From positions 80,280-144,279 of the forward strand of contig CAZNOF010000003.1 of NCBI GenBank assembly GCA_964574595.1: 64,000 nt of DNA. Direction: 5' to 3'. The DNA comes from an uncultured Pseudomonadales bacterium (GTDB taxonomy: Bacteria; Patescibacteriota; Microgenomatia; UBA1400; PJMF01). Shown piece by piece: positions 18,400 through 40,184 of this stretch. Numbering within the stretch: position 1 is the stretch's first letter; every line of letters starts with the position of its first letter. The notes under the pieces are model-generated. The model worked only from the letters and a program-made list of their open reading frames with translations. It made no database searches and had not been told where the DNA came from. The translations under genes were made by a program, and so were the position numbers.

Positions 18400-18406
18400 C
18401 ATATCT

Positions 18407-18871: not shown

Positions 18872-18901
18872 TAAATTACAGTAATTCAAAAAGGAGCCTT
18901 T

Positions 18902-19297: not shown

Positions 19298-19316
19298 AAA
19301 TTAAATGAATATGTTA

Positions 19317-19350
19317 CCCCCTCCGAGGCTCCTCGGAGGGGGTTTTTGTT
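19317..19350 (+). terminator. Strong rho-independent terminator after pilin paralog 6
   Basis: A perfect 12-nt inverted repeat, ccccctccgagg/cctcggaggggg, is followed by TTTTTGTTT. Confidence 0.75.
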
Positions 19351-19391
19351 TCTGATCACTGTCTGGTATAATTTCTGATTATTGAGCCTTT

Positions 19392-19994: not shown

Positions 19995-20004
19995 AAAAGC
20001 ACCC

Positions 20005-24020: not shown

Positions 24021-24914
24021 TTAACTTCGGGAACCTTCAGCGGGCGTGTATTCTTGAGGCACTTTTTTTGATTCTACTTTTTTGACTTCATTTTTTACTG
24101 GTTTATTTATGACGGATTGATGGGCTAAATTTGCAGCAGTGAGCATACTCTTAGATCGAGAAACTCGCCGACCACCAGCACGAAGCAGTTTTGAGACGAT
24201 TTCAAATGTATCAGCGGTTGTTGCCAATGATTGCATTTTATCCGTTGCCATCTCAATGCCGGTAATTAAGTTGGTGGCAATATCCCCCGTTATTTCCACG
24301 CCTAGTTCTTGCAACAGGTAGGCCATCACTTCTGATGTTGAAGCAGCTCCCATGGTACTGACTTTAATCGAGCCAAAGGGTGTTTCGTAACTATTCACAC
24401 TAATCGTGATTGAGTCCTCGTAAAGCTGCTCATAACCTTCGTAAAGCGCGTTCAACGAGTCCAAACTGGACACGCCAACTAAGAAAATAGCGTCGGCAGA
24501 GGCACCTGAGTAAGAAAACTCTACGGTTTTTGAATCAAGTGGTTTTGAGTCTTTGCGTGGTTGAATAATTAAGCGAAATTTCTTGGCTTCTTCGTCAATG
24601 TTATAACTGACTTTATCGACCATATCTTCTTGATAATCAAAAGAAATTTCTAAGTTCTTATTGCCCATTTCTTTGGATGTTTTTTCTACTCCGGAAATTT
24701 GAGAAAACTCATGAGAAGGCTTGGTGGGACAAAGCAAAAGACTACTCTTTCCTAATGACAACAGCCCGTCGTGTAAAGCCACTGCCGAGGCAACTTGATC
24801 AACGCTGGCTTGATTGGAATAAATGACTAAAATAGATTTGGCCTCAGAAACGGTATGTTGGATGGTTTGGACTTGATCAGGTGTAAGCATATGGATTCTG
24901 TCTACTATAACCAA
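24021..24914 (-). CDS. Hypothetical cytoplasmic protein; weak, unverified resemblance to a DHH-family phosphoesterase fold lacking catalytic residues
   Basis: This is a convergent 297-aa ORF. Only a loose architecture similarity to NrnA-like proteins is visible, and no DHH or GGGH motifs are present. Confidence 0.3.
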   Translation of the reverse strand: MVIVDRIHMLTPDQVQTIQHTVSEAKSILVIYSNQASVDQVASAVALHDGLLSLGKSSLLLCPTKPSHEFSQISGVEKTSKEMGNKNLEISFDYQEDMVDKVSYNIDEEAKKFRLIIQPRKDSKPLDSKTVEFSYSGASADAIFLVGVSSLDSLNALYEGYEQLYEDSITISVNSYETPFGSIKVSTMGAASTSEVMAYLLQELGVEITGDIATNLITGIEMATDKMQSLATTADTFEIVSKLLRAGGRRVSRSKSMLTAANLAHQSVINKPVKNEVKKVESKKVPQEYTPAEGSRS

Positions 24915-24999: not shown

Positions 25000-26655
25000 G
25001 TGAAAAAATGGTTCTCGATACTTTTTCTATCCCTCTTTGTGCTCATTTCTTTTGCTCGCCCAGTTAGTACGTTTGCTCAAGTAACGTGTCCAGTAGGAAC
25101 ACCTCCCGGTCAAATTGGTCAGAATCCAACTTGTTCCGGTTGTGCACCAGGATTAATTGTCGGTGCTGCTAGTAAATGTATGACTCCGGCGCAACTTCAA
25201 ACAAGTCAATGGACCATCCCAGTCATGCAACAAATTGACAAGGGCCGAGACGATCAAGAAGCAAACAACCCAAACTTGCGTGGAACTGGTTTCGATATCT
25301 TATCAACAGTGGTCGGTGGTTTAGGACAAATTGTTTTAACGGGCTCAGATAAAAAAGGTACTTTAACCGGTGACTCTGGTGTAACCAGTGCTGCCAAAAT
25401 GATTGGTATGCTCTACGTTCCTCCAGCCACTTCTCAAGAGTACATTGCCGATGTTTTGAAAGACGCCGGCGTGGCAACCCCAGCCTATGCGCAAGGATTA
25501 GGATTTTCAGCATTAGCTCCAGTACTTGAGACCTGGAAAATTTTCCGAACAGTCGCCTACTTCTTCTATGTGGTCATCTTCTTAATTATTGGATTCATGA
25601 TTATGTTCCGCCAAAAAATTGGGAGTCAAACCGTCGTAACTGTTCAACAGGCATTACCAAAACTCTTAATCTCTTTGATCGCCGTGACTTTCTCATACGC
25701 TATTGCTGGTTTCATGATTGAGGTGATGTATTTGGCGATGTCATTCATCGTCAACGTATTTGCCTCTGGCACATTGGGTGCAGAAAAAATTAATGGCCAA
25801 ACCATTCAGCAGTTCGGATCAAACAGTAATATCTTCAACATCGCTGGCATTATTATCAGTGGTGGCTTCCAGAACACGGTCAGTAATTCCGTGGGCAACA
25901 TGGTGAACGGTGTCTTAGGCATTCAACCAGATCAAGCGGGCGCTATCTTAGGCAGTATCACCGGCTTAGCAGCTGTGGTGGTCTTTGCCATTGCCCTCCT
26001 CTTCAGTCTCTTTAGATTATTCTTTGAACTTTTGAAAACCTACATCACGCTCATCATTATGATCGTGACCGCACCAGTTGCTTTGATGCTTGGCGCTTTA
26101 CCAGGCAACAACGCTTTTTCAAGTTGGTTGAAAGGGTTGTTCTTTAACTTAGCCGTCTTCCCAACTGTGTTATTAACTATCGTGATGGCCTTCTTGCTCC
26201 AAACCAGTATTTCAAATAACGGTGGCTTCTTACCTCCATACATTGGTGGCGTAGGAACAGCCGGATCAGTCGCCCCTCTCTTAGGATTGGGTGTCTTACT
26301 CGTTATTCCAGATATCGTCACTAAAGTGAAAAAGATGGCTCCAGCAGGACCATTTGATGAGTTTGCCAATAAAGCTGCAGCCGCTGTCAAACAAGGTTGG
26401 AAAGGTGGAGAGCTGGTTCCAGGACTTGGCTTTACAGACACCAGAAAACTTCCACTCGGTGGCTTAAGTGGTCAAAACGTTGTAACCAAACCATTTACAT
26501 CTGGATACGGTTTAGCCAAGGATTTGACTGGCAAAGTGGCGGCTGGTGGAGTTGGCAATGTCTTGCCATTTACTAGACGTGTTACACCTCCTCAAAAGAC
26601 AACTATTGATGAGAATAAGAATATGCCTGATCCAAGTCGAAGAAATAGAGTCTAA
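25000..26655 (+). CDS. Polytopic membrane protein, VirB6/TrbL-like T4SS channel component candidate
   Basis: It has a signal peptide, a Cys-containing extracytoplasmic N-domain, then at least six hydrophobic helices (FFYVVIFLIIGFMIMF, LISLIAVTFSYAIAGFMIEVMYLAMSFIV, and others). The topology is typical of VirB6/TrbL. Confidence 0.5.
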   Translation: MKKWFSILFLSLFVLISFARPVSTFAQVTCPVGTPPGQIGQNPTCSGCAPGLIVGAASKCMTPAQLQTSQWTIPVMQQIDKGRDDQEANNPNLRGTGFDILSTVVGGLGQIVLTGSDKKGTLTGDSGVTSAAKMIGMLYVPPATSQEYIADVLKDAGVATPAYAQGLGFSALAPVLETWKIFRTVAYFFYVVIFLIIGFMIMFRQKIGSQTVVTVQQALPKLLISLIAVTFSYAIAGFMIEVMYLAMSFIVNVFASGTLGAEKINGQTIQQFGSNSNIFNIAGIIISGGFQNTVSNSVGNMVNGVLGIQPDQAGAILGSITGLAAVVVFAIALLFSLFRLFFELLKTYITLIIMIVTAPVALMLGALPGNNAFSSWLKGLFFNLAVFPTVLLTIVMAFLLQTSISNNGGFLPPYIGGVGTAGSVAPLLGLGVLLVIPDIVTKVKKMAPAGPFDEFANKAAAAVKQGWKGGELVPGLGFTDTRKLPLGGLSGQNVVTKPFTSGYGLAKDLTGKVAAGGVGNVLPFTRRVTPPQKTTIDENKNMPDPSRRNRV

Positions 26656-26678: not shown

Positions 26679-26867
26679 ATGACTGACAAGACCAAACAAA
26701 AAATCTCCGAAATAATCAGAAGAAAATTTACGTTTTCTAAAGCCGTTGCACGTCAATCACAAGAAGCTGATGATTCTGAGGAGTTTGGTTACGGAGAACT
26801 CATTGAGAAACCCCAACCATCCCCATTTGGTGAATTCCCTGAATTAACGCGGGCAAATTCTCTTTAA
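26679..26867 (+). CDS. Small acidic hypothetical protein (62 aa)
   Basis: This ORF is unsupported by any other evidence. Confidence 0.2.
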   Translation: MTDKTKQKISEIIRRKFTFSKAVARQSQEADDSEEFGYGELIEKPQPSPFGEFPELTRANSL

Positions 26868-26954: not shown

Positions 26955-29900
26955 TTACTTCTTCTTCTGTTCAAACTTGCGGTAGTTCATCAATCCAGCA
27001 GCCACCAGCAAGTCATTTACACGACGCTCAGAAAGCAATCCAAAACCAGTATACTTACCTTCAGGAATCTCTTGACCGGTAATCCTTCCCATGACATCAG
27101 TTCTCGGTAATGTTGATTGATTATAGTAGACTTGTCTCCAGCCACCACGATAATTGAGGTATGCTTCATGACTTAACATTTCCTTAATTGCCTTAATGTT
27201 CTTTTCTGGGTTTTCTCGCCACTTGTTAAACTTGGCACCATCTTTACGAATTTCCATTAATTCGGCTATGAAAATAATTTCCATTTGATATTGAATTAAG
27301 GCCGTACACTGATCGTCAACTTTATCATCCATGACTCTAGCTAAACCACCTGATAAGAAGTCATATTGCTGTTTGTTTATTTCATTATGTTTCAGTAGAT
27401 GACCCAAAGCGTGATCCGCTTGATTGCCCATTAAACACATTTTTGGTGTAAACATTTCAACGTACTCAATGGCTCTAGGATCTGGGATCGAAGTATCTCC
27501 AGCTTTAATTCTATGAATCAGGTCCTCCTCAATCGCATTTCCGGCAGCATCTAAATAATGACCATCGTGATCTCTTTTAAATGTTCTTAATGGTAAGCCT
27601 CTAGTAATGCGCTCATCTGCTCTGGCAGGATTAGTCCAAATTTTCATTAACTCGTCGTACTCAGTCTTGCTTTTTAATGGCCATTTATAGTCGTTATTCC
27701 AGTAGTAGAAAGCAGCTCGCTCTAAACCCGTCAATTTCTCTGCTTGATGTTTATTAAATGTGACAAAAGTAGATTTATCCATTCTTGGTACTTCTGAAGC
27801 AACAGATAACCAGTCCAAGCCAGTTCCCTTGGTAATTGCCTCAAGCATCTTTTCTGAGTGGCCTACAGCCTCTTCTTCTTTCTTAGCAATACCTTCTGGA
27901 AAACCATTGGTTGGGATGGCATCAGATGGGACATTCCCGTCAAGCAACCAACGCAAGAATGTCCGTCTTTGCCCATCTAGCGCAGCCATGGCTTGTGGAT
28001 GCTTCGTGGCATCGTAGGCAAATTTTTGAGGATATCTTTGTAATGGTGGTTTGTACAGTTCGTGGAAGAAAGGAATGGTCAACTCTAAGCCTGGAGAACC
28101 AGAGTTTCTACCTTCTTCTTTGACGTACTTGGCACGGGTATCACCGGTGTTTACCAAATAACTCAATTGATAGAAGTCTCGACGCACTTTCTCGTCAAAG
28201 ATACCTCTTTGCATAGCACCTTCAATATAAATACCTGAGAACTTAGCAATTGCGTCAAAGAAGGTACTATTTGGATTTGCACCACGTAAGTGATCACTAA
28301 TTTTTTTAATAGCCTCTGTAGGATTAAATAAAATATCGTACTTACTGTCTGGATTATCAGCTAGAATTGTTTTGTTATAGACCGCCAAAACAGCTTCTCG
28401 TGTGTAATCACCAATTGTCTTTAACTGGGCATGATAAAAGGTTCCTGGTCGCTCTGGGATAACATCCGGGATAGCCGGAAAACCAGCCGTCGGCTTCTCA
28501 CGGATTCCTGGAATTGGAATAACTTTATCTTTAATTTTGAATGGTTCAAGCGCAATTACTCCTGTATATACAGCTTCAGGGGTACTGACAGCTCCAGTGA
28601 ATTCAGCTTTTCGCTGACGATACTCATACATTCTTTTTGAGGCCAGAAATACTTGAGCCATCGTGTAAAGATCGTCGTTAAGAATAGCACCTTCAGGCAT
28701 GTTTCCGACAATAGCCGTGAAGTCCACTGGCGTATTTGCCACACCTGGGAATGACATTTTTCTAGGATCAAAACCAGACTCTTGATATAAGTGTCCCGGT
28801 CCCACGTCATTATCCATTTGGCGGAAGTACCAGCCCCACATTAATTGTTTCAGCTCTTCATTGCCAAGAGCCGCAATTTGATCTTCTCTAAAGCCAACTT
28901 CTGGAGAACTCAAGAAACGTCTCATTAATCCATTTGGAATACGACTGGCTTCTTTATCTTCAGGAATACCTGGAGTTCTTGGTGGACCACCAACTCCACC
29001 AGGAGGTACTGTAGCACCGGAATATTTATTCAATCGCTTCAACCATTCCAGGTACTGATTCATGTACAGAGTAAATTCATCTAAATATTTTTGATTATCA
29101 GAGTCTTTCAAATCAAAAGATTCTTGAAGTTGTAGGAGTTGTCGATTAAAAAATTGACTAAACCGATCTTTGAAATCTCTCAAAAACTCACGGTCTTCAT
29201 CACGCAGACTGCCAGGCATGTCAGTACCAGCATCTTTAGCCGCAGCCATGATACGACCCAGGACTTCTGCTTCTTGAATTTCCTGGTCATAACTCCCGAT
29301 CATCATTTGAATAAGGCCATCCATGTCTGCTGGGAAGTCATCATCTAGCAAACTTGGTCTCAAAAAGTCTCGGCGACGAGCATCTTGGCTGCCACCTAAG
29401 CGTGCCACGTTATTTTCATGAAGAAGTTCTCGAATCAAGTGCTCTAATTTTTGAGCTTCTGCAAAGAGTGGCGACTTACTGTCAGCATCTTCTCGCTGAA
29501 TGGTAGCGTATCGCAAAATCTCATTTACACGCTCTTCTTCACCTTGATCAAGTGGTTTTCGACCACCTTTAGTAGAGACTTTTTTGGCGTATGCTCGCAA
29601 CTCGTTTGTAATAGAGTCTGCTTTGTTTGGTTCTTTAAATAAAGTTGTATCAATTCTATCTATTGCCGGTTCCAAGTCATGTTCGCCATCCTCATAAGGA
29701 TTTTTCAACGGATCGATATCTTCTAACCCGCTTCGATTATAGGCATCAGTAGCACCTTGAATAATTCCGTCAATTCTATTTCTTTCGGCTGGGATTGATT
29801 GAGCTAAAATGTGCCCTTCATCAGTGATCTGGCGTAGGGCTTGTTGAGCAGCTTTTTTTTGAGGTTCGGCATACTCCACTTTTGGACTATTAATTGCTCT

Positions 29901-30248
29901 AGATAATCGGATTTGAGCCTCAGTAAACATGATCAGGGAGTTTTTTTGATCTTGAGAAAGGCCTACAATTTTGTCGATAGTCTTCTCCAAGGAATCCATC
30001 ACCCGTTCTTGAAGACCAAAAATCTGAATGTCATCATCAAGAGTTGGTGTTTTAGAGGCTTTTTCGTAGGCTTTATCAAAATCTGGCTTAAATCGAGTTA
30101 TAAGCGTCAAAACGTCATCAACCGTTTTAATATTGGCTGGATCAATTGCTTCGGTCTCGAACGAATGGACAGCATTTGTTAAAGCCACTATCTTATCAGC
30201 AAGCTCAACTTGTTCTGCATCGTCTCTAACTTCGTGGTCAAATCGCAT
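26955..30248 (-). CDS. Large (1097 aa) hypothetical soluble protein in the T4SS-like locus
   Basis: The long uninterrupted ORF has no recognisable catalytic or NTP-binding motif and is D/E-rich. Confidence 0.5.
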   Translation of the reverse strand: MRFDHEVRDDAEQVELADKIVALTNAVHSFETEAIDPANIKTVDDVLTLITRFKPDFDKAYEKASKTPTLDDDIQIFGLQERVMDSLEKTIDKIVGLSQDQKNSLIMFTEAQIRLSRAINSPKVEYAEPQKKAAQQALRQITDEGHILAQSIPAERNRIDGIIQGATDAYNRSGLEDIDPLKNPYEDGEHDLEPAIDRIDTTLFKEPNKADSITNELRAYAKKVSTKGGRKPLDQGEEERVNEILRYATIQREDADSKSPLFAEAQKLEHLIRELLHENNVARLGGSQDARRRDFLRPSLLDDDFPADMDGLIQMMIGSYDQEIQEAEVLGRIMAAAKDAGTDMPGSLRDEDREFLRDFKDRFSQFFNRQLLQLQESFDLKDSDNQKYLDEFTLYMNQYLEWLKRLNKYSGATVPPGGVGGPPRTPGIPEDKEASRIPNGLMRRFLSSPEVGFREDQIAALGNEELKQLMWGWYFRQMDNDVGPGHLYQESGFDPRKMSFPGVANTPVDFTAIVGNMPEGAILNDDLYTMAQVFLASKRMYEYRQRKAEFTGAVSTPEAVYTGVIALEPFKIKDKVIPIPGIREKPTAGFPAIPDVIPERPGTFYHAQLKTIGDYTREAVLAVYNKTILADNPDSKYDILFNPTEAIKKISDHLRGANPNSTFFDAIAKFSGIYIEGAMQRGIFDEKVRRDFYQLSYLVNTGDTRAKYVKEEGRNSGSPGLELTIPFFHELYKPPLQRYPQKFAYDATKHPQAMAALDGQRRTFLRWLLDGNVPSDAIPTNGFPEGIAKKEEEAVGHSEKMLEAITKGTGLDWLSVASEVPRMDKSTFVTFNKHQAEKLTGLERAAFYYWNNDYKWPLKSKTEYDELMKIWTNPARADERITRGLPLRTFKRDHDGHYLDAAGNAIEEDLIHRIKAGDTSIPDPRAIEYVEMFTPKMCLMGNQADHALGHLLKHNEINKQQYDFLSGGLARVMDDKVDDQCTALIQYQMEIIFIAELMEIRKDGAKFNKWRENPEKNIKAIKEMLSHEAYLNYRGGWRQVYYNQSTLPRTDVMGRITGQEIPEGKYTGFGLLSERRVNDLLVAAGLMNYRKFEQKKK

Positions 30249-30264
30249 ATGAGTCTAACTTAAT

Positions 30265-32262
30265 CTATTTTATGGTGGCTATTTTCTGATTGTACTTAAG
30301 CACAATCGGTTTTAAATCATCCACTTCTTCTGGATTATATAACATTCTGTTCAGGATTTTAGCTACATTCCCTTTTTGGCTTGCCAACACACCTGGGGAA
30401 GCAGAATCAATTAAGTGATCTAGGGTCATTTTTAAGAGGTCAACACTAAATGTTTTAGAGGTTTTTACGACATCCATCGTCAGACCAGCAGCAGTTGCCC
30501 ACTCAGCAATTTGCTCTTCATGAGTAAGCTCCTTTTCTTTGACAGGATCTTGTGGATTTACCTCTTCAGCATTTGCTGCTGGTGTTGAGGTCTCATCACT
30601 AGTTTCTGAGGTCGCTTTTTGTTCTGGTGGCTGTGAAGCAGCCTTTTCTTGTGGCCGCTTTGGTTTAAATGTCTCATTCACGGGTTCTTGCACAGGAGCA
30701 GCTTTGGCGGCAGCATCTGGAGCCGATTGGTTGACTTGATCTGTGGTTGGAGCAGCTTGAGCTTTAGGATCTTCTCTTCTCACCCAATCTTTAGCTCTTC
30801 TCACAAAGCCGTCAAATGGACTGCCACTGTTTTTACTTTTTTCTGAGTCTGGTTGGTCTGCTTGAGGTGTCTTGGCTTGAGGTTCTGGAGCGGCTTTTGT
30901 CGGCTGTGCTTGTGGTTCAGCAACCGGAGCTTTTTTCTCGGCATTCGGCTGGACATTCGCAGGTTGAGGCTGACCGCCAGATTGGCGAGAACGCTTAATT
31001 TTCAGAACCATCTGTTCAGCGCCTCTTTTTCGAGTGGCAACGGGACTGTAATCTGCAATCGCTTGCCAAGCTTTTTCGTTATTTGGATCATCTTTGGTAA
31101 CTTCTTCAGCTAAGAGCAGAACTTGCTCTAGATCATTTCGTTCAATTGCCATTTTTAATGATTTAAGCAACGCTCCCACTTCTGCATTAATTGGAGTTTC
31201 TTCAACTTCTGGAGCTGCGGCTTTAGCATCCTGTTTTGCTGGCTCAGCTGCTGATGGGACTGACTCAGCCTTTGGGGCTGTTGGAATGAACGTGAGTCCA
31301 TAACCATCAAGCAGTTTAATAATATCTGGATTTGGTGGGGTTGATGGATTTACTTCACCAGATTTATACAATGGAAGAATTTGCTTTAAATAATTGTGTC
31401 TTTGACCTGGATCCTCAGCAGAAAGACCTAAGTCAGCGAGAATCTGTGGGTTCTTTTTGTAATCAGGAACGGCTAATAAAGACTGCTCGATACGCTTCTT
31501 TTCGGCATACGCAGCTTTTTTGACATCAGGATCTGATTCTTTATCAGTAGCAATTTCATGAAGATCAGTTAGGATTGCCCAACGTGCTTTGACATCGTTG
31601 GTTGCAGCCAATCGCTCACTACTTTTCGCAATTTGGGCTATCAGAGGACTTTCCGCTTGTGCATTGGCTGGAGGTTCTTGGTCTTGAGCCGGGACCTTGG
31701 CAGCTGAAGCTGGTTCTGCAACAGGTGGAGCTGATTTTAATTTATCAAGCTGTTCTTTTAATTCTCGATTTTCATCTTCAAGCTTCTGTTTTTCTTGTTC
31801 TAGTTGCTGGATTTTTTCTTTTTGCTCAGTAACTTCTTGTTGTAGTTCTTGCGTGGCGGCAGTCACAGCCTCAGTGGTTAACTCTTCAATCTGTTTTGGA
31901 TCTAAGGCAGCCTTCAGAAGGATTGATTCGATGACTTTACGAACGACCAATAACTCATTGATCTTTCTCTCACTCGCCTTTTCAATAATCTTGACTGATA
32001 TTTCAAGTTCAGGGGTTTTTTCTGCCTTTGCTTTATTGGCGATTTCAGTCACTTGAGCAATCAGCTGGTTTACCTCTTTGAGCGTTTTGGTTAGTTCTGA
32101 ATTATAGACATCATCTGATTTATTTTCCCTTTGTGGAAGCTCTGGTGAGGCAATTCGGACTATTTTAGACCAGTCTGGAGTGTAGGAAAGGTCTAGTTCA
32201 ACGACTTCTCGAGCAATTACTTCTGGAGTGGGGATATACTGTTGTTGTTCTGGTAACACCAT
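30265..32262 (-). CDS. Coiled-coil protein with P/A/Q-rich low-complexity central region (665 aa)
   Basis: It contains the heptad coiled coil QELQQEVTEQKEKIQQLEQEKQKLEDENRELKEQLDKLKS and long PEPQAKTPQADQP-type tracts. The overlapping plus-strand small ORFs are shadows. Confidence 0.5.
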   Translation of the reverse strand: MVLPEQQQYIPTPEVIAREVVELDLSYTPDWSKIVRIASPELPQRENKSDDVYNSELTKTLKEVNQLIAQVTEIANKAKAEKTPELEISVKIIEKASERKINELLVVRKVIESILLKAALDPKQIEELTTEAVTAATQELQQEVTEQKEKIQQLEQEKQKLEDENRELKEQLDKLKSAPPVAEPASAAKVPAQDQEPPANAQAESPLIAQIAKSSERLAATNDVKARWAILTDLHEIATDKESDPDVKKAAYAEKKRIEQSLLAVPDYKKNPQILADLGLSAEDPGQRHNYLKQILPLYKSGEVNPSTPPNPDIIKLLDGYGLTFIPTAPKAESVPSAAEPAKQDAKAAAPEVEETPINAEVGALLKSLKMAIERNDLEQVLLLAEEVTKDDPNNEKAWQAIADYSPVATRKRGAEQMVLKIKRSRQSGGQPQPANVQPNAEKKAPVAEPQAQPTKAAPEPQAKTPQADQPDSEKSKNSGSPFDGFVRRAKDWVRREDPKAQAAPTTDQVNQSAPDAAAKAAPVQEPVNETFKPKRPQEKAASQPPEQKATSETSDETSTPAANAEEVNPQDPVKEKELTHEEQIAEWATAAGLTMDVVKTSKTFSVDLLKMTLDHLIDSASPGVLASQKGNVAKILNRMLYNPEEVDDLKPIVLKYNQKIATIK

Positions 32263-32402
32263 AAATTCCTTGAATCTTCTCTGGCTTATTTTACATCTTC
32301 AGGTCATAGAAAAAAACAGACCAATTGTCTCTCATTATTATACGGTGATAACGAGTGAAGTTACAAGGAGTTATCAGGTGTTTTTATAGCACACGGACAC
32401 CA

Positions 32403-33734
32403 TTATGCTGCGTTAGGGAGCTCTTGATCGTTCTCTGTCTGTGATGGCGGCTGAGATGGTCGTTGAGCTTCTGGTTGAGGTTTGGATTCGGATGGAGTTG
32501 GAACAGAAGCAGCAGGCTCTGTAAAGTATTGGTCAAAAACATCCTCATCATTCTTTAAGTCCTCAAAGAAATTCCCAATCTCTTGACTAAACATCTTGCC
32601 ATATTGACCGGTAAACTCTTCAGAAACTTTTGTCCGAATAATGTGCCAACGAGCATTCACTTTATCCTCACCGTTAAATAACTCGTGCAAGAAAAGCTCC
32701 ATAAACTTCCTCATGGATTCAGGATCACCCTCTTTTGCCTTGGCAAATTGAGCTTCCATATCAGGGCTTCTCATCAGGCTTTTAAGTGCACCGTCAGAGG
32801 CATCATAAACTTTATAGAGCGCTTTAATAAAATCTTTTTGGCCATCTGGGCGCTTCAGCATACCTTGAAAATCTGATAAATCAATCACTTTTTCACCTTG
32901 TTCTTTACTTGACTCAAATTTGCCGCCAGAGGATCTTCCGTAACTTGTCGGGTTCATTAAGAAATCTAAAACGGTACCAAGGTCAACATCCTTGAAAGTC
33001 TCAAGATAGCCGACAGCCCATTGCATGCCTGCCTTCTTAAATGAGTCCAACCATGTTTTCTTTTTCTCTTCAAACCGAGGACTGCCTTTTTCTTCACCAG
33101 AAATTACAGCAAAGGCATCATCCAGATTTGTGGTCTTCAAAGATTCCGTTTCTTCAGCTACTTTCTCTTCTGCAAGTTTTTCGATATCCGCTTTAATCTG
33201 CTCGTCGTTTCTTGCCATGTAATCTTCAATAAACTCGGCAATAAACTCTTCTCTATTTGTCTCAGGTGGCTCGTTTAATAAGGCTGCTTCGGCTGCTGCC
33301 AGCGCATCCTTTTGATACTTTTCTGTCACCTGCCGCATCATCTCAGGATGAATTTTTGCCCGAACCACAGCGCTAATCTTTCCATCTTGTCCCCAATACT
33401 CATCGTATTTTGCTTGAACTGCTGCAATTTCCTTTTGCTCGGCTTGGTTCATTTCCGCCGTTTTCTTAATTGTGGCAATTTGTTCTTCGGTAAAGGCGCC
33501 AGAGGCAATTAAGTCATCAATAGGGACACTGTCCTTTTGCTGCGGGATGGCAAGGCCTTTTTCTTGATCATTAGGAGCAACTTGGGCGAGATCTTTTGAC
33601 CCAGTTGTTGTCAAGGTAGTGGTTTGTGCATCAGGAAGATTGATATCTGGACCAGTGGTCGCATTTGGATCAACCGGCGCTGGCTCTGGACTAGGTATTT
33701 CTGTAAATTCGCCTTCTGAAATTTCTTCATTCAT
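32403..33734 (-). CDS. Acidic hypothetical protein (443 aa)
   Basis: This E/D-rich ORF has no recognisable motif. Confidence 0.45.
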   Translation of the reverse strand: MNEEISEGEFTEIPSPEPAPVDPNATTGPDINLPDAQTTTLTTTGSKDLAQVAPNDQEKGLAIPQQKDSVPIDDLIASGAFTEEQIATIKKTAEMNQAEQKEIAAVQAKYDEYWGQDGKISAVVRAKIHPEMMRQVTEKYQKDALAAAEAALLNEPPETNREEFIAEFIEDYMARNDEQIKADIEKLAEEKVAEETESLKTTNLDDAFAVISGEEKGSPRFEEKKKTWLDSFKKAGMQWAVGYLETFKDVDLGTVLDFLMNPTSYGRSSGGKFESSKEQGEKVIDLSDFQGMLKRPDGQKDFIKALYKVYDASDGALKSLMRSPDMEAQFAKAKEGDPESMRKFMELFLHELFNGEDKVNARWHIIRTKVSEEFTGQYGKMFSQEIGNFFEDLKNDEDVFDQYFTEPAASVPTPSESKPQPEAQRPSQPPSQTENDQELPNAA

Positions 33735-33951
33735 ACCATCACTATACCAGTAAAGCTTTTTTGGTCAAAACAGGAAAATGCGATTCTTGAAATGGCTTTT
33801 CAATAGTGATAGGTTGGTGATAGTTTTAAACATTCCTTCGGAAGCTGGTGAAAATCCAGCACTGTGCCGCAACGGTGAGAGCAAATGCTTAAGTCCGATC
33901 TGAAGGAACTTCTTTACCAGGCTACTGGCTAAAGAATGGACGAGCATCCAT

Positions 33952-35793
33952 ATGTCAAAAGAGACCCCCTTCTACTCAGAAGCGGCTGACTTTCAGCCCT
34001 CAAAAGAACGTTTTAACCCAGAAGTAACTTCACAGGAGTCATTGTGGCGAATTGATTTTATTTTAAAACGATATTCTCAGGGTGACTTAACTCACCCTCG
34101 GGAAGCGCTCAGAACAGATTTTCAGGCTTTAGCCCATGAAGAACTCCTAGCTCAGCGGAAAATGTCGTGGAGTCGAGAGCTGCATGACTATGGCACAACT
34201 GGTGGAGGCTACGATGATCCTCTTCAAAGAATGACCCAAAACTACGTCTCCTATATCGGCCGAGAAAATGGCGATATCAGTCGGGCGATTCTAGAAAACT
34301 TGATGTTAAAAGAGACAGAGACTATCGCCGCCGAAACAGCGGAAGAACCAGGCACATTCATGGTTTGGATTAGTCCACCTGGTCCAGTAGAACAAGGCTA
34401 TCAAGGTATTACCTCAGCTCAAGACTGGACTGCTCCGGAAAAATTCCCTTCCAAAATCTACATTATGTGGTCTGAGGGCGCCGAAATGAAAACGGTTCAG
34501 TTAACTGGTTGGCCAAATGTGGATCAGCTCGTTTCCTTCTGGGAGAAGCTCAATGGCAAACCGTTTCCTCATGGCGATAAAGAAAATATTTTGCTGGAAC
34601 TCATTGCCAACTTGACAGTGAAAAAGGACTTTGCGGGAACACCTGAAGAGTTCGTGAATCAGGTTTCGCAAGATTTCTTTGCTTCTCAGGAAAGCTGGAG
34701 CAATGCCGTAGAGATGCCCAGCGTGAATCCGGAGAAATTTGATCAAGAAGTTGAAAAAGGCTGGCAAGAATTTTATTGGCCAGAAGTTCAAAAGTTGTTA
34801 AGCGTCATTCCGAAAGATTTAACCGACAACGATCCATTCTGGAGCTCTGAAGAATACCGGCAAGTAGTTCAAGAACTTGACTTGGCTTTTGCTTATTACT
34901 TCAGAACACTTAGTCTCTTTGTTTCTCAAGGTGATAAAGCAAAAATGATTCCCTGGCCAAAAGTCAGAAAATCATTTCATTTTGACTGTGATGTAAAGGT
35001 GTATGGCAAAAAAGCATCTGTTCGAGAGATGAAAAATCACACTGCCGTCTTGAGGACATTCATGGACATCGGGAACAAAGGATTTAGTGTCTCGCAATGT
35101 GGACTACTCGCACCATTCCCAACAGCGCTAAACGCAATGAAAAGCGCCGGGAACTTTAATGGTGTGCTAGGACTGAACGGGAATTTTAAGAAAGAATTTT
35201 CCCCAGCATATGCTGAAAAACTACAGTCGGAGGAGTATCAGTTAAAACTCGCCGAGTATCAACGAATTCAAACAGGTAATTACCAAGAGCTCACATTGAC
35301 CGTGAATGGTGAAGATGTTCACTACATGGTTCCGGCAGACTTTTTGACTGGCAAGGGATGTTTTGTGGCTGAAGTTGATGGCCAAGAGGTTGCCATGGGA
35401 CCGTGTGATATTCCGCTAGACACCATCTTTAAAGACCCAAATGAAAATCTTGTCTACAAAATGTCTGCTTTAGAATTTGCCGAACATGCGAGGCAACTCT
35501 ACAACTTTCTATTTGCTGATGAGCTAGAAACAGCGGCCAATAGTATTGACAAGAACCCACAGCTTTCACAAACAGAGAAACAAAAGGCGAAGCAACTACT
35601 TGCTGAGCTCGAAACAATTATTTTTAAGCCAACTATCGGTCTAAGTGAGTTGGTCGCTGGCGTGACACCATTCAATGAAGATGCTGGTCTGTACTTGCCT
35701 GGACAGATTACCCAACAACTTCATCAGTCAAAGAATCCTATAAAATTGCTGGAAGAAATGGTCTTTTCCACGTCTGTGTTTAGTAGCTCTTGA
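33952..35793 (+). CDS. Hypothetical protein (613 aa), translationally coupled to the downstream giant protein
   Basis: Its stop overlaps the 35790 start (ATGA). Confidence 0.5.
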   Translation: MSKETPFYSEAADFQPSKERFNPEVTSQESLWRIDFILKRYSQGDLTHPREALRTDFQALAHEELLAQRKMSWSRELHDYGTTGGGYDDPLQRMTQNYVSYIGRENGDISRAILENLMLKETETIAAETAEEPGTFMVWISPPGPVEQGYQGITSAQDWTAPEKFPSKIYIMWSEGAEMKTVQLTGWPNVDQLVSFWEKLNGKPFPHGDKENILLELIANLTVKKDFAGTPEEFVNQVSQDFFASQESWSNAVEMPSVNPEKFDQEVEKGWQEFYWPEVQKLLSVIPKDLTDNDPFWSSEEYRQVVQELDLAFAYYFRTLSLFVSQGDKAKMIPWPKVRKSFHFDCDVKVYGKKASVREMKNHTAVLRTFMDIGNKGFSVSQCGLLAPFPTALNAMKSAGNFNGVLGLNGNFKKEFSPAYAEKLQSEEYQLKLAEYQRIQTGNYQELTLTVNGEDVHYMVPADFLTGKGCFVAEVDGQEVAMGPCDIPLDTIFKDPNENLVYKMSALEFAEHARQLYNFLFADELETAANSIDKNPQLSQTEKQKAKQLLAELETIIFKPTIGLSELVAGVTPFNEDAGLYLPGQITQQLHQSKNPIKLLEEMVFSTSVFSSS

Positions 35794-38700
35794 GCGCTAT
35801 AATTACAGAACACGTTATGTCTCTTCGCATTAATCAGCAACTTCGGAACCCAGAAGGAATAGCCAGACTTCTTGAGAGAATCAAGGATGGGTTAAGCGTT
35901 CGGTCCCCCGACTATATTAGTGCTAATACTATCTTTTATCTTGATAAAGATTTCACAATTGAGGGAACAGCTCCCTTTCAAGCCGATCAACCAATTATCA
36001 TTAATCCAAATGCCAAGAAATCGGGAGAAATTGCCGACAAAGGTGGCGCTCCACAAAGTTTAACGTTATTTGACGTCTTTTTACTTTTGAATCAGGCTTA
36101 CGCCGAACTATACGACCCCGATTTCAACAAAAAATACGTTTCAAATCAGCCAAATGGCCGACAACTTGCTTTTTTTGAACATCTAAAAGAAACAAAAGAT
36201 AATTACCTAGCGACAAAGGCTCATGAGATTGAATCTGGTAATGTCACTATTCCAAATAAAGAAGAGTTACTCACGGAGATTGTTGAAAGTTTGGCAGAAG
36301 CCATAGAAGCACTTTTTGCTGAGGGACAAGGGGCTGAAGAAAAAAAGGAAGATAATCGAACGGAAGAAATTCCAGAGTGGCTTAAGGCTGCCTTGGAAGA
36401 ACCTTTGCGGGATAAAAAGCACTGGAAACTCATTGCTGAAATAATCAAACCCAAAGAAGACAAAAAAGGCTTTTTAGAAATTGCTATTGACCGATATCGG
36501 AATATTCAGTCGCAAAATCGAGCAGATTTCCCGGGTATACAACTCAAAACAAAAGAAGAATTGATCTCGATTGTAGCCCTCAGAAAATTCCTCAACGAAT
36601 GGGCTGAAAAAATTCTAGAAGAAGATACTCATGACCCTTTCAGACATTTCAGATTTACATCTGAAGCTGATAAAAACTTGATCTTTTTCCCAGTAGTTGA
36701 TAAAGGAACAGCGGTTAATGATCTCGAGCTCGTTCAAGACTTGGATGTCCAGGCCGTTCGATCATTTAAAGAATGGCTGCTTCTTCCACTTGAAGAGTAT
36801 GAAGACAAAGAAGATGGCGAACACGTAAATGGAACCGAGCATGAAGATGGTGGTGGAGATGAAGGTGATGACAAAACTGAGAAGAAAAAAGCCGACCTTC
36901 CTAAGACAGATCAAGAAAAAGAAGAACTCATCAAGAACCTCAATGAGCATCAAGCGTTTGTGCGACAGGAAACGCTTCGTCTGCAAACCATTGCTACGAA
37001 CTTTGTTCTTTCTTTTAATAACCTTCCAACCTCACTAGGTAACGACTTACTTGGCACTGATAAGCACATCTTCTTTGAATATTTTGAACGAGAAATTAAC
37101 TCTGAAATCATGGAGATGCTGAGTCGAAATGGTGATGCTCTAAATGATGAGAATCGCCGTGCTCAGATAACAAGACAGTTCTTGTTTAGGTTAATGGCCA
37201 ATCCTAAGTTCCAAGCTCACTTAGCACTACTGAGAGAAAAGTACATTGACGTTCAAATTGATAAACAGAACCCAGATATTCCGGCAGAAGAACGCGCCGA
37301 ACTCAAGAAGCAACTCCTTGAAGACCTTATTCAACATCCTAAAGCAGACGTTAATCAACTTTTAACTGAAGTCTACTCAGCCATGAAGGTCTCTGCTCTG
37401 GCTGGTCTTACAGAGACACAAGAAAAGCAGATTCGCGAAGAACTCGTCAAGAAACTTAATTCAAACCCACGTTTGAATGTTGATGCTTTCTTAACTGATA
37501 CCTTTGCCGCCGTGAAAGTAGCTTCTGGTGTTGGTGGCTTGTCAGCCGGACAACAAGTTGAATTAACAACCCGTCTCAAAGCCGGCCTCGCCAAAAATCC
37601 AAAAGCTTCAATTGATGATCTTCTTAAACAGTTGTATGCAGAGATGCAGGCATCCGCTTCTCCACTCACAGACGCACAACAAGCTGAGTTAAGGAAACAG
37701 TTTCAAGGAAGGTTTAGTACGAACCCACTTGATCGTATTGAGCTCATTTTAAATGAGATTTATGCCTCAGTTCCTAATTTATCGGATGCACAAAAAAATA
37801 CTCTCAGACAACAACTCACAGCAGGTCTTTCCAGAAATGCGGCCGTTAATATTGATGAGATTATTAAAGGTCTTTCAAAGGAATTACCAGCATCGGATCC
37901 AAATAAAGCTGTTTTCAACACAGGCGCACTGACTAAAGATCATTTTCTTGAACTTTTGAAGTATTACGACCTAACTCCTGAACAACAAAATGCACTGTTT
38001 GAAGGCGTGGACTTACTCATGTTCATGAGAGTCTCACCAGAGAGAATCTCTCGATTCACGTCAGCCCAGCTCATTGAAATTTTTGGCGTAGATATCTCAC
38101 AGCTCCCTAAAAATCACGGTGATGAGTTCGTAAATATTCTCACTTCATATTTCATGCTGCGTCGACAATGGTTTGAGAAAGAATATAACTCCGCATCCGT
38201 CAGCCAAGCTCAAGACATTATCTACAATGACCGGGCACTCACAGATGAAGAGTTAAAACTCTTGTTAGAGCAGAAAGCAATGATTAAGAAAAGTGGTTTG
38301 GGTGCCAAACACTTTGTTCGTGCATCAGTTCTGACGAAAGCTCAAGTAGCTAACTTTAAATCTTCCGGACATGCAGAAGCCGAGGAAACAGAAGTTGCCG
38401 CCAATCTCCTCCAAGAAAATCGCAAACGCCTGTATATTGAGCTCGCTAAACAGTTCGCTGAGCAAGATGAAGAGTACCGAAAATACTTAATGAACCAGGT
38501 AGGTGTTCATTTTAATGATGCCAATTTCTTAAATTTAATTGAGACAAGCATGGACATGTCGCCCTTTGAATATCAAAGTGGCGTGGTTACAAATGAAGAT
38601 CAGCAAGTTATTCATAGTGCGGCGCAAGCAGAGCAAAACTATGCTGAAGGAAAGAAAGCTGGCTTTTCTAATACAGCATTAAGTGCGGTAGCAGACGAGG

Positions 38701-40184
38701 GCGCCGCATTACTAGGAAGCGCCGCCGCAAACGCTGTTTTGCCAGGTGTGGGCTTCTTCATTCCTAAATCAGCAAAGAAAACAATTGGTAAAGCCGTAGC
38801 CATAGGTGGCGCTGTTGTAGGTGGCGGTGCTGTTTTAGCTCTTGGCCAGTTGGTCAGTCAATTTGGCGCTGTTGGTGGGAGTGCCATCTTTTTTGGAGCC
38901 GTGGGTGGAGTCTTTGGTGGAGTCTTCGGAGCCATTGGCGGTGCCATTGCAGGAGCTGGTTTTGGTGCAGCCTTGCAGAGTAGTGGAATTGGACTCAGTA
39001 ATTTAACTGGTGGGGCTGGCGGTGCCGTTGCTAGTACCGCAGCAACTCCTGCCGCAACTGCGGCTGCTCCATCTTTAGCAGCCAAGGCCGCTGGGGCAAT
39101 CAGATCAGTAGTTTCAAGTCCAGCCGGTGTAGCAGTCACTGGATTTGTGGGTGTGAGTACAGTGGGTTCAGTCCTCGTGTACACCCAACTCACGACCGCC
39201 TTTTTACCACCGATTGTTCAAACCACGACTGAGTATGCCTCTGTCACTAAGACAGCTACTCCCTCAAAAGCAGCTCAGCCGACAACGGTGAATTACACAG
39301 TGAACATTTCCGCAAATCCAACCTATAAAATTGAAATTACTGACATAACAGACACAATTGTAGCAATTTCTAAAGATCCTAATAACCATCCAGCAACTCC
39401 ACCACCAGTAGATTTAAGTAAATATAAGACCACTCTTGATTCTGCTGGAACTGCTTCTACAAATATCACCTACTCAGTTCCTTTTGATAGTAGCTACGTG
39501 GATAGTTTAGTCACCAACACCTTTACGATTAAGTACACTGTTACAGACGCAGGCGTTACCTCAGATCAAGTTACATCTGCTACCGCAACCACTTGCTTTG
39601 GTGATTGTCCTGCTCCAAAGGTGGGCTGTTGGCCAGCTTCTGGATTGATTTGGGAAGGTCCATATGAATCGCCACAATCAACTCATAATCATCCCAGTAA
39701 GGGATCATCTGTTTGGGTTTTCCTTGATGCTGTCGATATCTCAAACGGCACGCCACAGCCAGTACCCATCTATACACCTTTTGATGGCACCGCATCCTTT
39801 TATACATACAATCAGACAACTGGCGAAGGGGCTGGCGGCAATTACGGAAATCGTGTTGCGGTGAGAACCAGTACAGGAGCTGTCCTTTTATTTGCTCACT
39901 TTGAACGATTCATGCCAACATTCCAGCCAGGACAGTCCTATCCCGTTCATGCGGGAGACCAACTTGGGTTTATGGGCACAACGGGAAATGCTGGACCGGG
40001 CGTCTACGGAAAGCACTTGCACTATGAGTACCGTCCCGCCAAAACTGGAGCTCAGGGTGGCGCACCTTCTATCAGTAATCTCTCCTTGTTGCTGCCAGAG
40101 CCAGTTCAGTACACGTCAAAGTGGCAAGTTACGCGTAAACAACGTGTTGTGACAACATGTAATGGGACAGCAGCTACACCATAA
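35790..40184 (+). CDS. Giant (1464 aa) multi-domain protein: N-terminal soluble region with four to five tandem ~42-aa helical repeats, a Gly/Ala-rich multi-TM (GxxxG zipper) block, and a C-terminal M23 (LytM-type) metallopeptidase domain
   Basis: The repeats lie at about 37341-37908 (NVDAFLTDTFAAVKV..., SIDDLLKQLYAEMQ..., RIELILNEIYASV..., NIDEIIKGLSKEL). The hydrophobic Gly-zipper block lies at about 38690-39190 (GAVGGVFGGVFGAIGGAIAGAGFGAAL). The M23 motifs are HNHPSKGSSVWVFLDAVD, GTTGNAGPGVYGKHLHYEY and HxH, at about 39640-40050. Confidence 0.7.
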   Translation: MSAIITEHVMSLRINQQLRNPEGIARLLERIKDGLSVRSPDYISANTIFYLDKDFTIEGTAPFQADQPIIINPNAKKSGEIADKGGAPQSLTLFDVFLLLNQAYAELYDPDFNKKYVSNQPNGRQLAFFEHLKETKDNYLATKAHEIESGNVTIPNKEELLTEIVESLAEAIEALFAEGQGAEEKKEDNRTEEIPEWLKAALEEPLRDKKHWKLIAEIIKPKEDKKGFLEIAIDRYRNIQSQNRADFPGIQLKTKEELISIVALRKFLNEWAEKILEEDTHDPFRHFRFTSEADKNLIFFPVVDKGTAVNDLELVQDLDVQAVRSFKEWLLLPLEEYEDKEDGEHVNGTEHEDGGGDEGDDKTEKKKADLPKTDQEKEELIKNLNEHQAFVRQETLRLQTIATNFVLSFNNLPTSLGNDLLGTDKHIFFEYFEREINSEIMEMLSRNGDALNDENRRAQITRQFLFRLMANPKFQAHLALLREKYIDVQIDKQNPDIPAEERAELKKQLLEDLIQHPKADVNQLLTEVYSAMKVSALAGLTETQEKQIREELVKKLNSNPRLNVDAFLTDTFAAVKVASGVGGLSAGQQVELTTRLKAGLAKNPKASIDDLLKQLYAEMQASASPLTDAQQAELRKQFQGRFSTNPLDRIELILNEIYASVPNLSDAQKNTLRQQLTAGLSRNAAVNIDEIIKGLSKELPASDPNKAVFNTGALTKDHFLELLKYYDLTPEQQNALFEGVDLLMFMRVSPERISRFTSAQLIEIFGVDISQLPKNHGDEFVNILTSYFMLRRQWFEKEYNSASVSQAQDIIYNDRALTDEELKLLLEQKAMIKKSGLGAKHFVRASVLTKAQVANFKSSGHAEAEETEVAANLLQENRKRLYIELAKQFAEQDEEYRKYLMNQVGVHFNDANFLNLIETSMDMSPFEYQSGVVTNEDQQVIHSAAQAEQNYAEGKKAGFSNTALSAVADEGAALLGSAAANAVLPGVGFFIPKSAKKTIGKAVAIGGAVVGGGAVLALGQLVSQFGAVGGSAIFFGAVGGVFGGVFGAIGGAIAGAGFGAALQSSGIGLSNLTGGAGGAVASTAATPAATAAAPSLAAKAAGAIRSVVSSPAGVAVTGFVGVSTVGSVLVYTQLTTAFLPPIVQTTTEYASVTKTATPSKAAQPTTVNYTVNISANPTYKIEITDITDTIVAISKDPNNHPATPPPVDLSKYKTTLDSAGTASTNITYSVPFDSSYVDSLVTNTFTIKYTVTDAGVTSDQVTSATATTCFGDCPAPKVGCWPASGLIWEGPYESPQSTHNHPSKGSSVWVFLDAVDISNGTPQPVPIYTPFDGTASFYTYNQTTGEGAGGNYGNRVAVRTSTGAVLLFAHFERFMPTFQPGQSYPVHAGDQLGFMGTTGNAGPGVYGKHLHYEYRPAKTGAQGGAPSISNLSLLLPEPVQYTSKWQVTRKQRVVTTCNGTAATP

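Follow-up and report, generated by a model that had tools for sequence, protein, structure and literature searches.

In a stretch of 64,000 nucleotides (nt) of contig CAZNOF010000003.1 (GenBank assembly GCA_964574595.1), called the window throughout, four large open reading frames (ORFs) that we name A, B, C and D lie between a VirB6-like gene and the gene of a giant M23-peptidase protein. Library scans of the window proteins identify the surroundings as the chromosomal, oriC-adjacent type IV secretion system (T4SS) locus of a Microgenomates-group Patescibacterium. The four ORFs are real genes in a syntenic arrangement; A is modular, C has been replaced relative to sister genomes, nonsynonymous changes are in excess in the block, protein ends carry slot-specific motifs, and an adenosylcobalamin (AdoCbl) riboswitch with covarying helices lies between C and D. 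We tentatively favour the explanation that the four are genuine locus-specific genes forming two functional units around one divergent control region. The four genes are as follows (lengths in amino acids, aa).

26955-30248, minus strand: gene A, 1097 aa, pI 5.41, net charge -28
30265-32262, minus strand: gene B, 665 aa, pI 5.06, net charge -21
32403-33734, minus strand: gene C, 443 aa, pI 4.50, net charge -37
33952-35793, plus strand: gene D, 613 aa, pI 4.82, net charge -30

The number, lengths and strands of the four ORFs (three on the minus strand) and their place between the VirB6-like and M23 genes are exactly as given in a preliminary description of the window, and the lengths are far beyond chance expectation. 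That description also denied them any transmembrane (TM) segment or nucleotide-binding motif, and rightly so, as no 19-residue Kyte-Doolittle window in A to D rises above 1.6 and no Walker A motif is present in any of them; with both features absent from all four, none qualifies as a type IV coupling protein (VirD4/TcpA). Acidity, described as strong for one protein, extends to all four (pI 4.50-5.41). By composition, A and D are globular-like throughout, B consists of short ordered parts and long P/A/Q-rich stretches, and C has disordered termini. In syntenic orthologues, the proportions of nonsynonymous and synonymous differences (pN and pS) are 0.39 and 0.73 for the N-terminal domain of A and 0.24 and 0.74 for D, and the GC content of the block equals that of its surroundings. 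Searches of A to D against Pfam, PHROGs, NCBIfam, PADLOC and PDB sequences gave no matches beyond weak coiled-coil noise for B, and homology to housekeeping proteins, which the description had named as a possible refutation, was found for none of the four. Its statement that they lack detectable homology holds for characterised families, but A, C and D have uncharacterised relatives in other Patescibacteria, and B alone has none.

The comparison loci were obtained by scanning an alignment of the VirB6-like protein against one genome per species, which gave 250 confirmed relatives, from which 80 loci were kept; all 80 belong to Patescibacteria-type metagenome-assembled genomes (MAGs) of Pacebacteria, Woesebacteria, Microgenomates, Beckwith- and Chisholmbacteria. 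Below, W stands for the window, L-numbers for comparison loci and P-numbers for related proteins. The order shared by sister genomes and well beyond them is o297 (minus strand), the VirB6-like gene (plus), a large acidic TM-free gene (minus), zero to three acidic minus-strand genes, an optional plus-strand gene and M23 (plus), and after M23 come o326, PrgI, TraC and VirB4. Relatives whose context was examined all lie in this same T4SS locus, which speaks for the preliminary description. The VirB6-like proteins of 83 loci measure 441-679 aa and are without fusion to A-like sequence.

Among loci with at least 4.5 kb downstream of the VirB6-like gene, the A slot is occupied by a large minus-strand gene in 57 of 57 (median 1074 aa, median pI 5.6). 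Proteins at this position have 680-1500 aa and are acidic and TM-free, and Pfam domains were found in 0 of 44 of them. The B/C slots hold 0-3 genes, and the presence of B, C and D varies among loci. The A position is thus fixed in this locus type, and B, C and D are optional; the variability across genomes that had been expected of effectors is seen in the presence of B, C and D and in the content of A, B and C, but not in the occupancy of the A slot. The four genes do not form one class.

A word-indexed homology search with A recovered A itself and nothing else, and an exhaustive HMMER scan of 1.84e9 representatives gave 19 matches, all of 890-1170 aa except one fragment of 154 aa. These matches split into two disjoint sets, one covering residues ~5-436 and the other residues ~781-1042 only, and both sets sit at the A position beside VirB6. 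The protein can accordingly be divided into the following parts.

29004-30248, minus strand: N-terminal domain of A, aa ~1-415, ~16 long helices, conserved only within the clade (AlphaFold2)
27123-27908, minus strand: C-terminal module of A, aa ~781-1042, defined by phmmer matches to A-position proteins of distant lineages
26955-26972, minus strand: Lys-rich C-terminal tail of A (...RKFEQKKK-stop), an instance of the slot-specific K/H tail

The N-terminal domain is 40% identical to its orthologue in L006, 34% in L092, 32% in L008 and 24% in L009, and AlphaFold2 with an 18-sequence alignment models residues 10-410 as all-alpha with a predicted local distance difference test (pLDDT) score mostly of 80-93; a P/G-rich linker (aa ~416-445) follows, and the remainder of the model is of low confidence. 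Foldseek gave no significant match for this domain, only generic alpha-solenoids. Structure prediction, one of the checks proposed in the preliminary description, therefore yielded a confident all-alpha N-terminal domain for A, but a poor model for D and no functional lead from structure searches. The C-terminal module matches the A-position proteins P0021/L091 (4e-19) and P0020/L090 (4e-12), as well as P0029, P0030 and P0032, and because it is common to distant lineages and not to close relatives we regard it as an exchangeable module. The same pattern appears among W, L092 and L006, whose VirB4 proteins are ~90% identical: they carry three C-terminal types on one type of N-terminal domain (34-40% identity), the type of L092 matching L009 (2e-120) and that of L006 matching L040 and P0031, and each of the three recurs in more distant organisms. 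A model of the commonest C-terminal domain ('domY'), which is independent of clade, joins 26 A-position proteins, including those of L009 (1e-11) and L008 (2e-6), and does not detect A of the window; a crude full-length profile of the A family failed a leave-clade-out test and was discarded. A conserved N-terminal region combined with exchangeable C-terminal domains among close relatives is one of the traits by which polymorphic toxins are recognised.

The ends of the A-position proteins are unusual for the locus. K/H endings are found in 58% of them and in 16% of the other proteins of the same loci (P=5e-15), a terminal His in 21% against 1.3% of controls, and the pattern K-x(0-3)-[K/H]-COOH in 42% against 7%. 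The majority of members end in K/H in 22 of 33 clusters that lack similarity over the last 150 residues (P=2e-10), and the tail is absent from the B/C-slot genes (13%) and from the D family (6%). The positively charged C-terminal signal proposed earlier is not seen as an excess of positive charge over the last 20 residues, and what the check brought out is this slot-specific ending of A-position proteins. In the 300-nt gap between the VirB6-like gene and A, the only ORF, one of 62 codons (26679-26867, plus strand), lies on the strand opposite to A; it is probably not a gene, because it has no tblastn relative in other loci. In L090 an unrelated 79-aa gene is called in the same gap. A small immunity-like ORF following A was considered and rejected for want of conservation.

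To the evidence from modularity we can add the rates at which the parts of the locus have changed. Between W and L006, identity is 89.5% for VirB4, 82% for the TraC-like protein, 64% for the VirB6-like protein and 62% for PrgI, and it is 61% for D, 45% for M23, 40% for the N-terminal domain of A and ~26-29% for o326, whereas the C-terminal part of A, B and C cannot be aligned and give no match. The nonsynonymous divergence (dN) between the same two loci is 0.08 for VirB4 and 0.56 for the N-terminal domain of A; the ratio of dN to synonymous divergence (dS) is uninformative because synonymous sites are saturated. By VirB4 identity, L008 (~81%) is an outgroup to W, L092 and L006 (~90% to each other). 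Since L008, L006, L092 and L009 share one C family that excludes C of the window, simple decay does not explain the unalignable parts.

A similar concentration of change is seen within one population, in an L006-type strain assembled from several samples with 18 segregating sites. Of the 12 differences between L006 and L007 in 18.5 kb, A holds 9, more than its length would predict (P=8e-6), and 8 of the 9 are nonsynonymous. Over up to six strains, the segregating sites in A, B and C together are 10 nonsynonymous to 1 synonymous, and those in the other eight genes 2 to 5 (Fisher P=0.013); in-frame indels between strains comprise 26 codons in the positional counterpart of B and 15 codons in C. 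Five of the eight contigs that carry the D orthologue P0012 end inside the block, four of them no more than ~80 codons into the C-slot gene and one in A, which suggests strain-level heterogeneity that breaks assemblies. L094-L098 are among the contigs that carry P0012.

The remaining minus-strand genes, B and C, vary in presence. An iterative profile search of 89 loci recovered no relative of B, and the proteins of the B slot are mutually unrelated. B had been described as a long coiled coil with P/A/Q-rich spacers; the P/A/Q-rich low-complexity sequence is there and makes up much of the protein outside residues ~125-185, but only these residues are coiled-coil-like, and weakly so, by matches to coiled-coil families in library scans, no dedicated coiled-coil predictor having been applied. 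The B stop codon and the A start are 16 nt apart and the two genes belong to the same operon. With C in front, C-B-A is a divergent operon with the following elements.

32403-33734, minus strand: C-slot gene C, first gene of C-B-A, with disordered termini and an -AA end (profile searches)
33741-33768, minus strand: sigma-70-like promoter match TTGACC-16-TATAGT with extended -10, directly upstream of C (10/12, the best site; consensus match only)
32337-32366, minus strand: second promoter-like site TTGTAA-18-TATAAT in the 140-nt gap between C and B (10/12)

Given the second of these sites, B-A may be transcribed independently of C. The sister genomes L006, L008, L009 and L092 have one C family in common (E to 6e-70), and C of the window stands outside it and has its relatives in the C-slot genes of the distant L022 (8e-22) and L065 (6e-11). 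C is thus a non-orthologous replacement relative to the sister genomes, and its distribution conflicts with the organism tree whichever way the C families relate. The last minus-strand gene of the block, in the C slot, ends in -AA in 6 of 21 loci, compared with 7 of 726 controls (P=3e-7). These -AA-ending genes are C of the window (...ELPNAA, 32403-32408) and those of L009, L015, L022, L013 and L010, and their end resembles a C-terminal degron of the ssrA/ClpX type.

C and D start divergently from either side of a 217-nt region, and within it lies a full-length match to the Rfam family RF01482.

33822-33938, plus strand: AdoCbl (cobalamin) riboswitch aptamer, RF01482, 49.0 bits, E 3.7e-8, model positions 1-149

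A conserved 3' hairpin (UGGACGAGCAUCCA), all four pairs of which covary, ends 4 nt before the D ATG, and the invariant core (GGUGnAAnUCC...CUGUGCCGCAACGGU) recurs upstream of D-family genes in nine other loci. An independent MAFFT alignment of the copies shows compensatory changes at 11 of 23 predicted pairs, and a covariance model built from it (R1) matches the window at 33813-33958 and about 27 distinct T4SS loci, including every D-family locus; the matches invariably fall in the control region that separates the A/B/C block from the first plus-strand gene. Copies are located at 9844-10007 in L006, 9866-10051 in L008, 7458-7606 in L009 and 5029-5157 in L092, with about 22 further loci. In an alignment of 31 copies, 94.5% of cells are paired compared with 74% in shuffles, double changes occur at 15 of 23 pairs, and the covariation score is 0.567 as opposed to 0.177 in shuffled alignments (0/500) and at most 0.144 in slid ones, figures that carry the caveat that this alignment was fitted to the model.

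Downstream of the riboswitch we find the D family (16 loci), a family of ~550-615 aa that is weakly D-like, or a family of ~240 aa. In two genomes it is on the other strand: in GCA_040384245.1 (L005/L092), which is without D, it heads the operon X241-C'-B'-A' in L092, and in L023 it stands at the head of a 235-aa gene, behind which comes the A-slot gene. The riboswitch goes together with a D-slot gene (17/21 vs 1/23, P=2e-7), and its presence is linked to that of B/C genes as well (10/13 vs 8/31, P=0.003). As a control we sampled metagenome contigs, in which the same core precedes NrdD in 4 of 10 and class I ribonucleotide reductase (RNR) in 1 of 10; NrdD and class I RNR are classic B12-independent isozymes repressed by cobalamin riboswitches. 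In the other five of the ten (L103, L110, L125, L143 and L196) the core precedes proteins of 446-586 aa without a Pfam domain; they are unmatched by the models of D, D2 and X241 and may represent further B12-regulated families. On sequence grounds, this appears to be an ordinary B12 riboswitch type recruited to an unusual target, and the literature we searched links the cobalamin riboswitch neither to Patescibacteria nor to a T4SS.

D itself is a conserved gene. It shares 61, 47 and 44% identity with the clade orthologues P0012-14, and an iterative profile search extends its family to 21 loci, always on the plus strand ahead of M23; it is absent from the closest genome. Its invariant or near-invariant residues include Cys383 and Cys485, Cys470 is conserved in most members, and the family also has invariant Asp, Glu and Ser residues. 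D is the first gene of the operon D-M23-o326-PrgI-TraC-VirB4, separated from the M23 gene by at most 25 nt or overlapping it, with no terminator-like site between them. Neither the single sequence nor the D-family profile has similarity in the PDB, and no Pfam similarity was found; the AlphaFold2 model is unusable (pLDDT 50) because it was folded from 4 sequences only, and its Foldseek matches are meaningless. An NrdD-like identity for D was ruled out, there being no Pfam match, and the alternative D-slot genes D2 and X241 were rejected as clear homologues of D (HHalign 40% and 0.1%). D opens the machinery operon, represents a conserved globular family and follows an AdoCbl riboswitch, and so it is no orphan effector candidate.

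The preliminary description had read the block as effectors, chaperones or scaffolds; what stands of this is that the genes are locus-restricted, fast-evolving and variable, and what does not is that they could be treated as one class, given that D is not effector-like and that the A slot is filled in 57 of 57 loci. In our reading, A is quite possibly a host-facing polymorphic cargo handled by the T4SS, with B and C as variable helpers. We favour cargo for A because of its docking-like N-terminal domain, its shuffled C-terminal modules, its shared tail, the concentration of nonsynonymous polymorphism in it and rates of change above those of exposed parts of the machine; this combination is what characterises proteins linking a conserved machine to a target that lies outside and varies. 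The N-terminal domain would dock A to the machine beside VirB6, and A would be handed to the T4SS and then exposed to, or delivered into, the host bacterium; such exposure would explain its diversification. B and C could be lineage-variable, partly disordered helpers acting as chaperone, adaptor or regulator. By analogy with the copies upstream of NrdD, D would be made through the AdoCbl riboswitch when B12 is scarce, and we infer a link of D itself to B12 as well as the direction and extent of B12 control. That the riboswitch heads the operon of the C/B/A counterparts in a sister genome without D places both units in one B12-responsive module. In a fuller scenario, the riboswitch, a D-slot gene and the C-B-A operon would make up an optional B12-responsive module of the T4SS in Microgenomates-type Patescibacteria: B12 shortage would lead the epibiont to switch on D and the linked machinery and to send out A, a polymorphic protein matched to the host, by way of the T4SS so as to gain corrinoids or other nutrients from the host cell, and the hypervariability of A, B and C would reflect an arms race over access to hosts. 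As a whole this seems to us distinctly unlikely; if true, it would give the Patescibacteria T4SS its first regulatory input, its first candidate substrate and its first physiological rationale.

Several observations weigh against cargo and against joint control by B12. No toxin or trafficking domain, enzyme or known fold was found in A (Pfam, NCBIfam, PDB), its C-terminal module has conserved and invariant positions but no known catalytic motif, and no immunity-like ORF is conserved after A across the loci. A has no signal peptide, its export being putative, and the window contains no T4CP/VirD4. The A-position tails have a net charge over 20 residues like that of controls (P=0.07), so the K/H tail is not a classical Arg-rich signal, and a positively charged signal of that kind on A was rejected. 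A universally filled slot is atypical for effectors and fits a core partner of the machine equally well. The polymorphism sample is small, and the 8 nonsynonymous to 1 synonymous changes in A alone are not significantly above the neutral expectation, which makes the evidence for diversification suggestive and not conclusive; fast change is also expected of weakly constrained helical or disordered proteins anywhere. The two C families are weakly connected when their profiles are compared (HHalign 50%, E 1.6e-4 over 110 columns) and may be very divergent old alleles of one superfamily instead of unrelated genes. On the side of D, a B12-binding DxHxxG motif was sought and rejected (0/17), and the window copy of the riboswitch is 1 bit under the Rfam gathering threshold (49.0 bits against 50), which is why a whole-window scan at the gathering score missed it; the orthologous copies of L009 (55.7 bits) and L023 (50.2 bits) pass. 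Finally, the riboswitch may gate the D-slot gene alone and not the downstream machinery, as loci without a D-slot gene lack it.

Three other explanations were weighed. It could be held that the block is unrelated inserted cargo (a defence island, a mobile-element remnant or a piece of prophage) or a set of decaying or spurious ORFs, as its opposite strand, the orphan B and the contig breaks at the block might suggest; this is close to refuted, since the gene order recurs across dozens of Patescibacteria lineages, there are no PADLOC, PHROG or transposase matches, the GC content is like that of the surroundings, the ORFs of 443-1097 aa are intact with pN well below pS where they can be aligned, and the A slot is filled in 57 of 57 loci. 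The same full slot, always adjoining and convergent with VirB6, is an argument for regarding A, with or without B and C, as a component of the machine that stays in the cytoplasm in a structural or regulatory role, and not as cargo. It might be either a detached counterpart of the ARM-like domain of an extended VirB6 or a stand-in for the missing coupling protein, bringing substrates to the channel entrance; the rapid change of A would then reflect low constraint on solenoid and disordered sequence. The lack of a signal peptide or TM segment in A agrees with this, as does its all-alpha, repeat-like N-terminal domain, whose top Foldseek matches, although non-significant, are importin and beta-catenin ARM repeats; ARM-repeat domains are carried, by structure-based annotation, by the essential VirB6-like SEML1_0013 and SEML1_0011 of S. 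epibionticum, the hydrophilic domains of extended VirB6 are of unknown function according to a review (PMC12857230), and a K/H tail, being basic, could attach to anionic lipid of the inner leaflet. Partners of conserved ATPases, however, are expected to be conserved, and dN in the N-terminal domain of A is 7x that of VirB4; close relatives have three non-homologous C-terminal modules, nonsynonymous single-nucleotide polymorphisms are concentrated in A within one population, and homology of A to any VirB6 extension has been neither tested nor found. The coupling-protein variant also has to contend with the lack of a nucleotide-binding motif in A, which makes it no T4CP. A machine part is the main rival of cargo, and we consider it rather unlikely.

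For D the competing explanation is that it, or D2 or X241 in its place, is a cobalamin-economy protein, whether a B12-independent substitute enzyme or a factor for corrinoid capture or processing, that is merely next to the T4SS operon, so that the riboswitch would tell nothing about the machine or about A, B and C. The riboswitch does follow the D-slot gene and is absent where M23 directly follows A (the 17/21 vs 1/23 above), three protein families occupy the slot that it controls, the same riboswitch type controls NrdD and class I RNR, and the invariant Cys, Asp, Glu and Ser residues of D are compatible with an enzyme. Yet among the loci compared, D-family genes are confined to the slot in the T4SS locus (21/21, and flanked metagenome matches such as L199 and L218, where M23 and o326 follow), and D is tied to M23 by the short or overlapping junction without a terminator-like site. 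In two genomes (L092 and L023) the riboswitch heads an operon that runs through the A-slot gene, it correlates with the B/C genes too (P=0.003), and D shows neither a B12-binding motif nor any similarity to Pfam or PDB entries. A D unconnected with the T4SS is therefore unlikely in our judgement, and we retain the two functional units around a common control region as the preferred explanation.

The block is set in the following machinery genes.

16758-20466, plus strand: eight T4SS_pilin paralogues (library scans)
25000-26655, plus strand: VirB6-like polytopic membrane protein, 551 aa, ~6 TM segments, convergent with A; the anchor of the comparison set
35790-40184, plus strand: giant M23-peptidase protein, 1464 aa, Pfam PF01551, directly downstream of D

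On the upstream side of the block, the plus strand carries the pilin array, then a Cys-rich exported protein of 1167 aa and then the VirB6-like gene; past the block come M23, a 326-aa single-TM protein (o326), PrgI/VirB3, a TrsD/TraC-like protein and VirB4, and directly after VirB4 the window has dnaA, dnaN, yidC, khpB, RNase H and a DUF4012 protein. The M23 protein has an acidic helical N-terminal region of ~950 aa with repeated '...NP[KR]...' segments and a spurious-looking TnsA_C match, followed by a Gly/Ala-rich TM region and the peptidase domain. Orthologue alignments begin at residue 10, so translation probably starts at the ATG there (nt 35817), and with that start D and M23 do not overlap and are separated by ~23 nt. 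The 1167-aa protein (20511-24014, plus strand) contains 24 cysteines, begins with a hydrophobic segment, weakly matches a glucosaminidase at its C-terminal end and is conserved in L092 and L090; it is possibly a VirB1-like wall hydrolase that closes the pilin array. Divergent from the VirB6-like gene is a 297-aa gene (24021-24914, minus strand), conserved in 62 loci and 70% identical in L006, with a weak DHH-phosphoesterase match and a Walker-A-like motif at residue 50, and uncharacterised. A 471-aa protein with a C-terminal T4SS_pilin domain (10239-11654, plus strand) is encoded 5 kb upstream of the main pilin array, and between the two are uppS-like and amino-acid-kinase-family genes and two more ORFs. 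At the left end of the window (705-3600, minus strand), an ATP-dependent DNA ligase adjoins a Fic/DOC protein with a helix-turn-helix domain, unrelated to the block. Public records list many related MAGs (among L010-L089) as 'uncultured Pseudomonadales/Gammaproteobacteria bacterium' despite their Patescibacteria locus content, an apparent mislabelling, and one related record is labelled candidate division TM6.

The T4SS of Patescibacteria has been described as MPF_FATA-derived, relaxase-less and dnaA-proximal (PMC12102498), is essential in Southlakia epibionticum (PMC10633639), and has had its role termed 'completely unknown' (PMC11665869); no substrate, regulator or signal has been identified for it, and it is essential in the one species tested (PMC10633639, PMC11665869, PMC12857230). 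The block genes are not mentioned in PMC10633639, PMC11665869 or the nomenclature review PMC12857230. A, being universal, hypervariable, modular, placed by VirB6 and provided with a slot-specific tail, is the obvious first candidate for a cargo or specificity determinant, and the locus stands out as a hot spot of diversification in that its accessory genes have been replaced from one sister genome to another. In about 27 lineages the machinery operon is headed by a cobalamin riboswitch, which links the system to scarcity of a cofactor, B12, that these organisms are unable to make, and even if A should be structural this would be a new kind of target for a very well-studied riboswitch class.

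Polymorphic toxin and effector loci include those of the LXG toxins of T7SSb, CdiA-CT and Rhs, with accessory proteins of ~100-150 aa. The block resembles them in the conserved N-terminal region and exchangeable C-terminal modules of A, in accessory genes of the same operon, in the nonsynonymous excess and in a fixed slot by the machinery; it differs in that A lacks an LXG, PT-TG, Rhs or other known toxin domain as well as a conserved immunity-like ORF behind it, in the large size of the accessory proteins (443-665 aa) and in having a T4SS as its machine. Some substrates of T4SSs are recognised by C-terminal signals, such as Arg-rich tails in VirB/VirD4 systems and the XVIPCD of the X-Tfe effectors of Xanthomonas. 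The K-x(0-3)-[K/H]-COOH ends of A-position proteins are comparable in that they are kept despite unrelated C-terminal regions, but the A tail is rich in Lys/His and not in Arg, net charge over 20 residues is ordinary, and the locus has no VirD4; in XVIPCD proteins, moreover, the conserved domain is C-terminal, whereas that of A is N-terminal. With RF01482 (clan CL00101) the riboswitch shares a full-length match, the invariant core, covarying helices and the occurrence of the same core before NrdD and class I RNR. It departs from that family in its target, an uncharacterised protein that heads a T4SS operon, a class absent from the literature searched, and in the score of the window copy (49.0 vs 50 bits).

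Closer to the machinery, A is like the extended VirB6 proteins (PMC12857230; S. epibionticum SEML1_0013) in being a large soluble alpha-helical polypeptide invariably found with VirB6, and unlike them in being a separate opposite-strand gene without a TM segment; the likeness is one without demonstrated sequence or structural homology. Such a block is lacking from the Saccharibacteria cluster SEML1_0006-0019, where ARM-like domains are instead fused to VirB6. The locus type as such is known: like the MPF_FATA-derived T4SS of Patescibacteria (Quinonero-Coronel et al. 2025, PMC12102498; Wang et al. 2023, PMC10633639), it comprises VirB4, a TrsD/TraC-like protein, PrgI/VirB3, a VirB6-like protein, M23 and a VirB2-like pilin array, and it is chromosomal, beside dnaA, with relaxase and coupling protein absent from the cluster. 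The large soluble opposite-strand genes and the riboswitch are not described in those two papers, and the anatomy of the block, the slot-specific tails and the link between riboswitch and T4SS were not found in the literature searched. The 2025 survey (PMC12102498) reported VirB6 to be 'scarce' in Microgenomatia; here, a VirB6-like gene anchors 250 confirmed loci.

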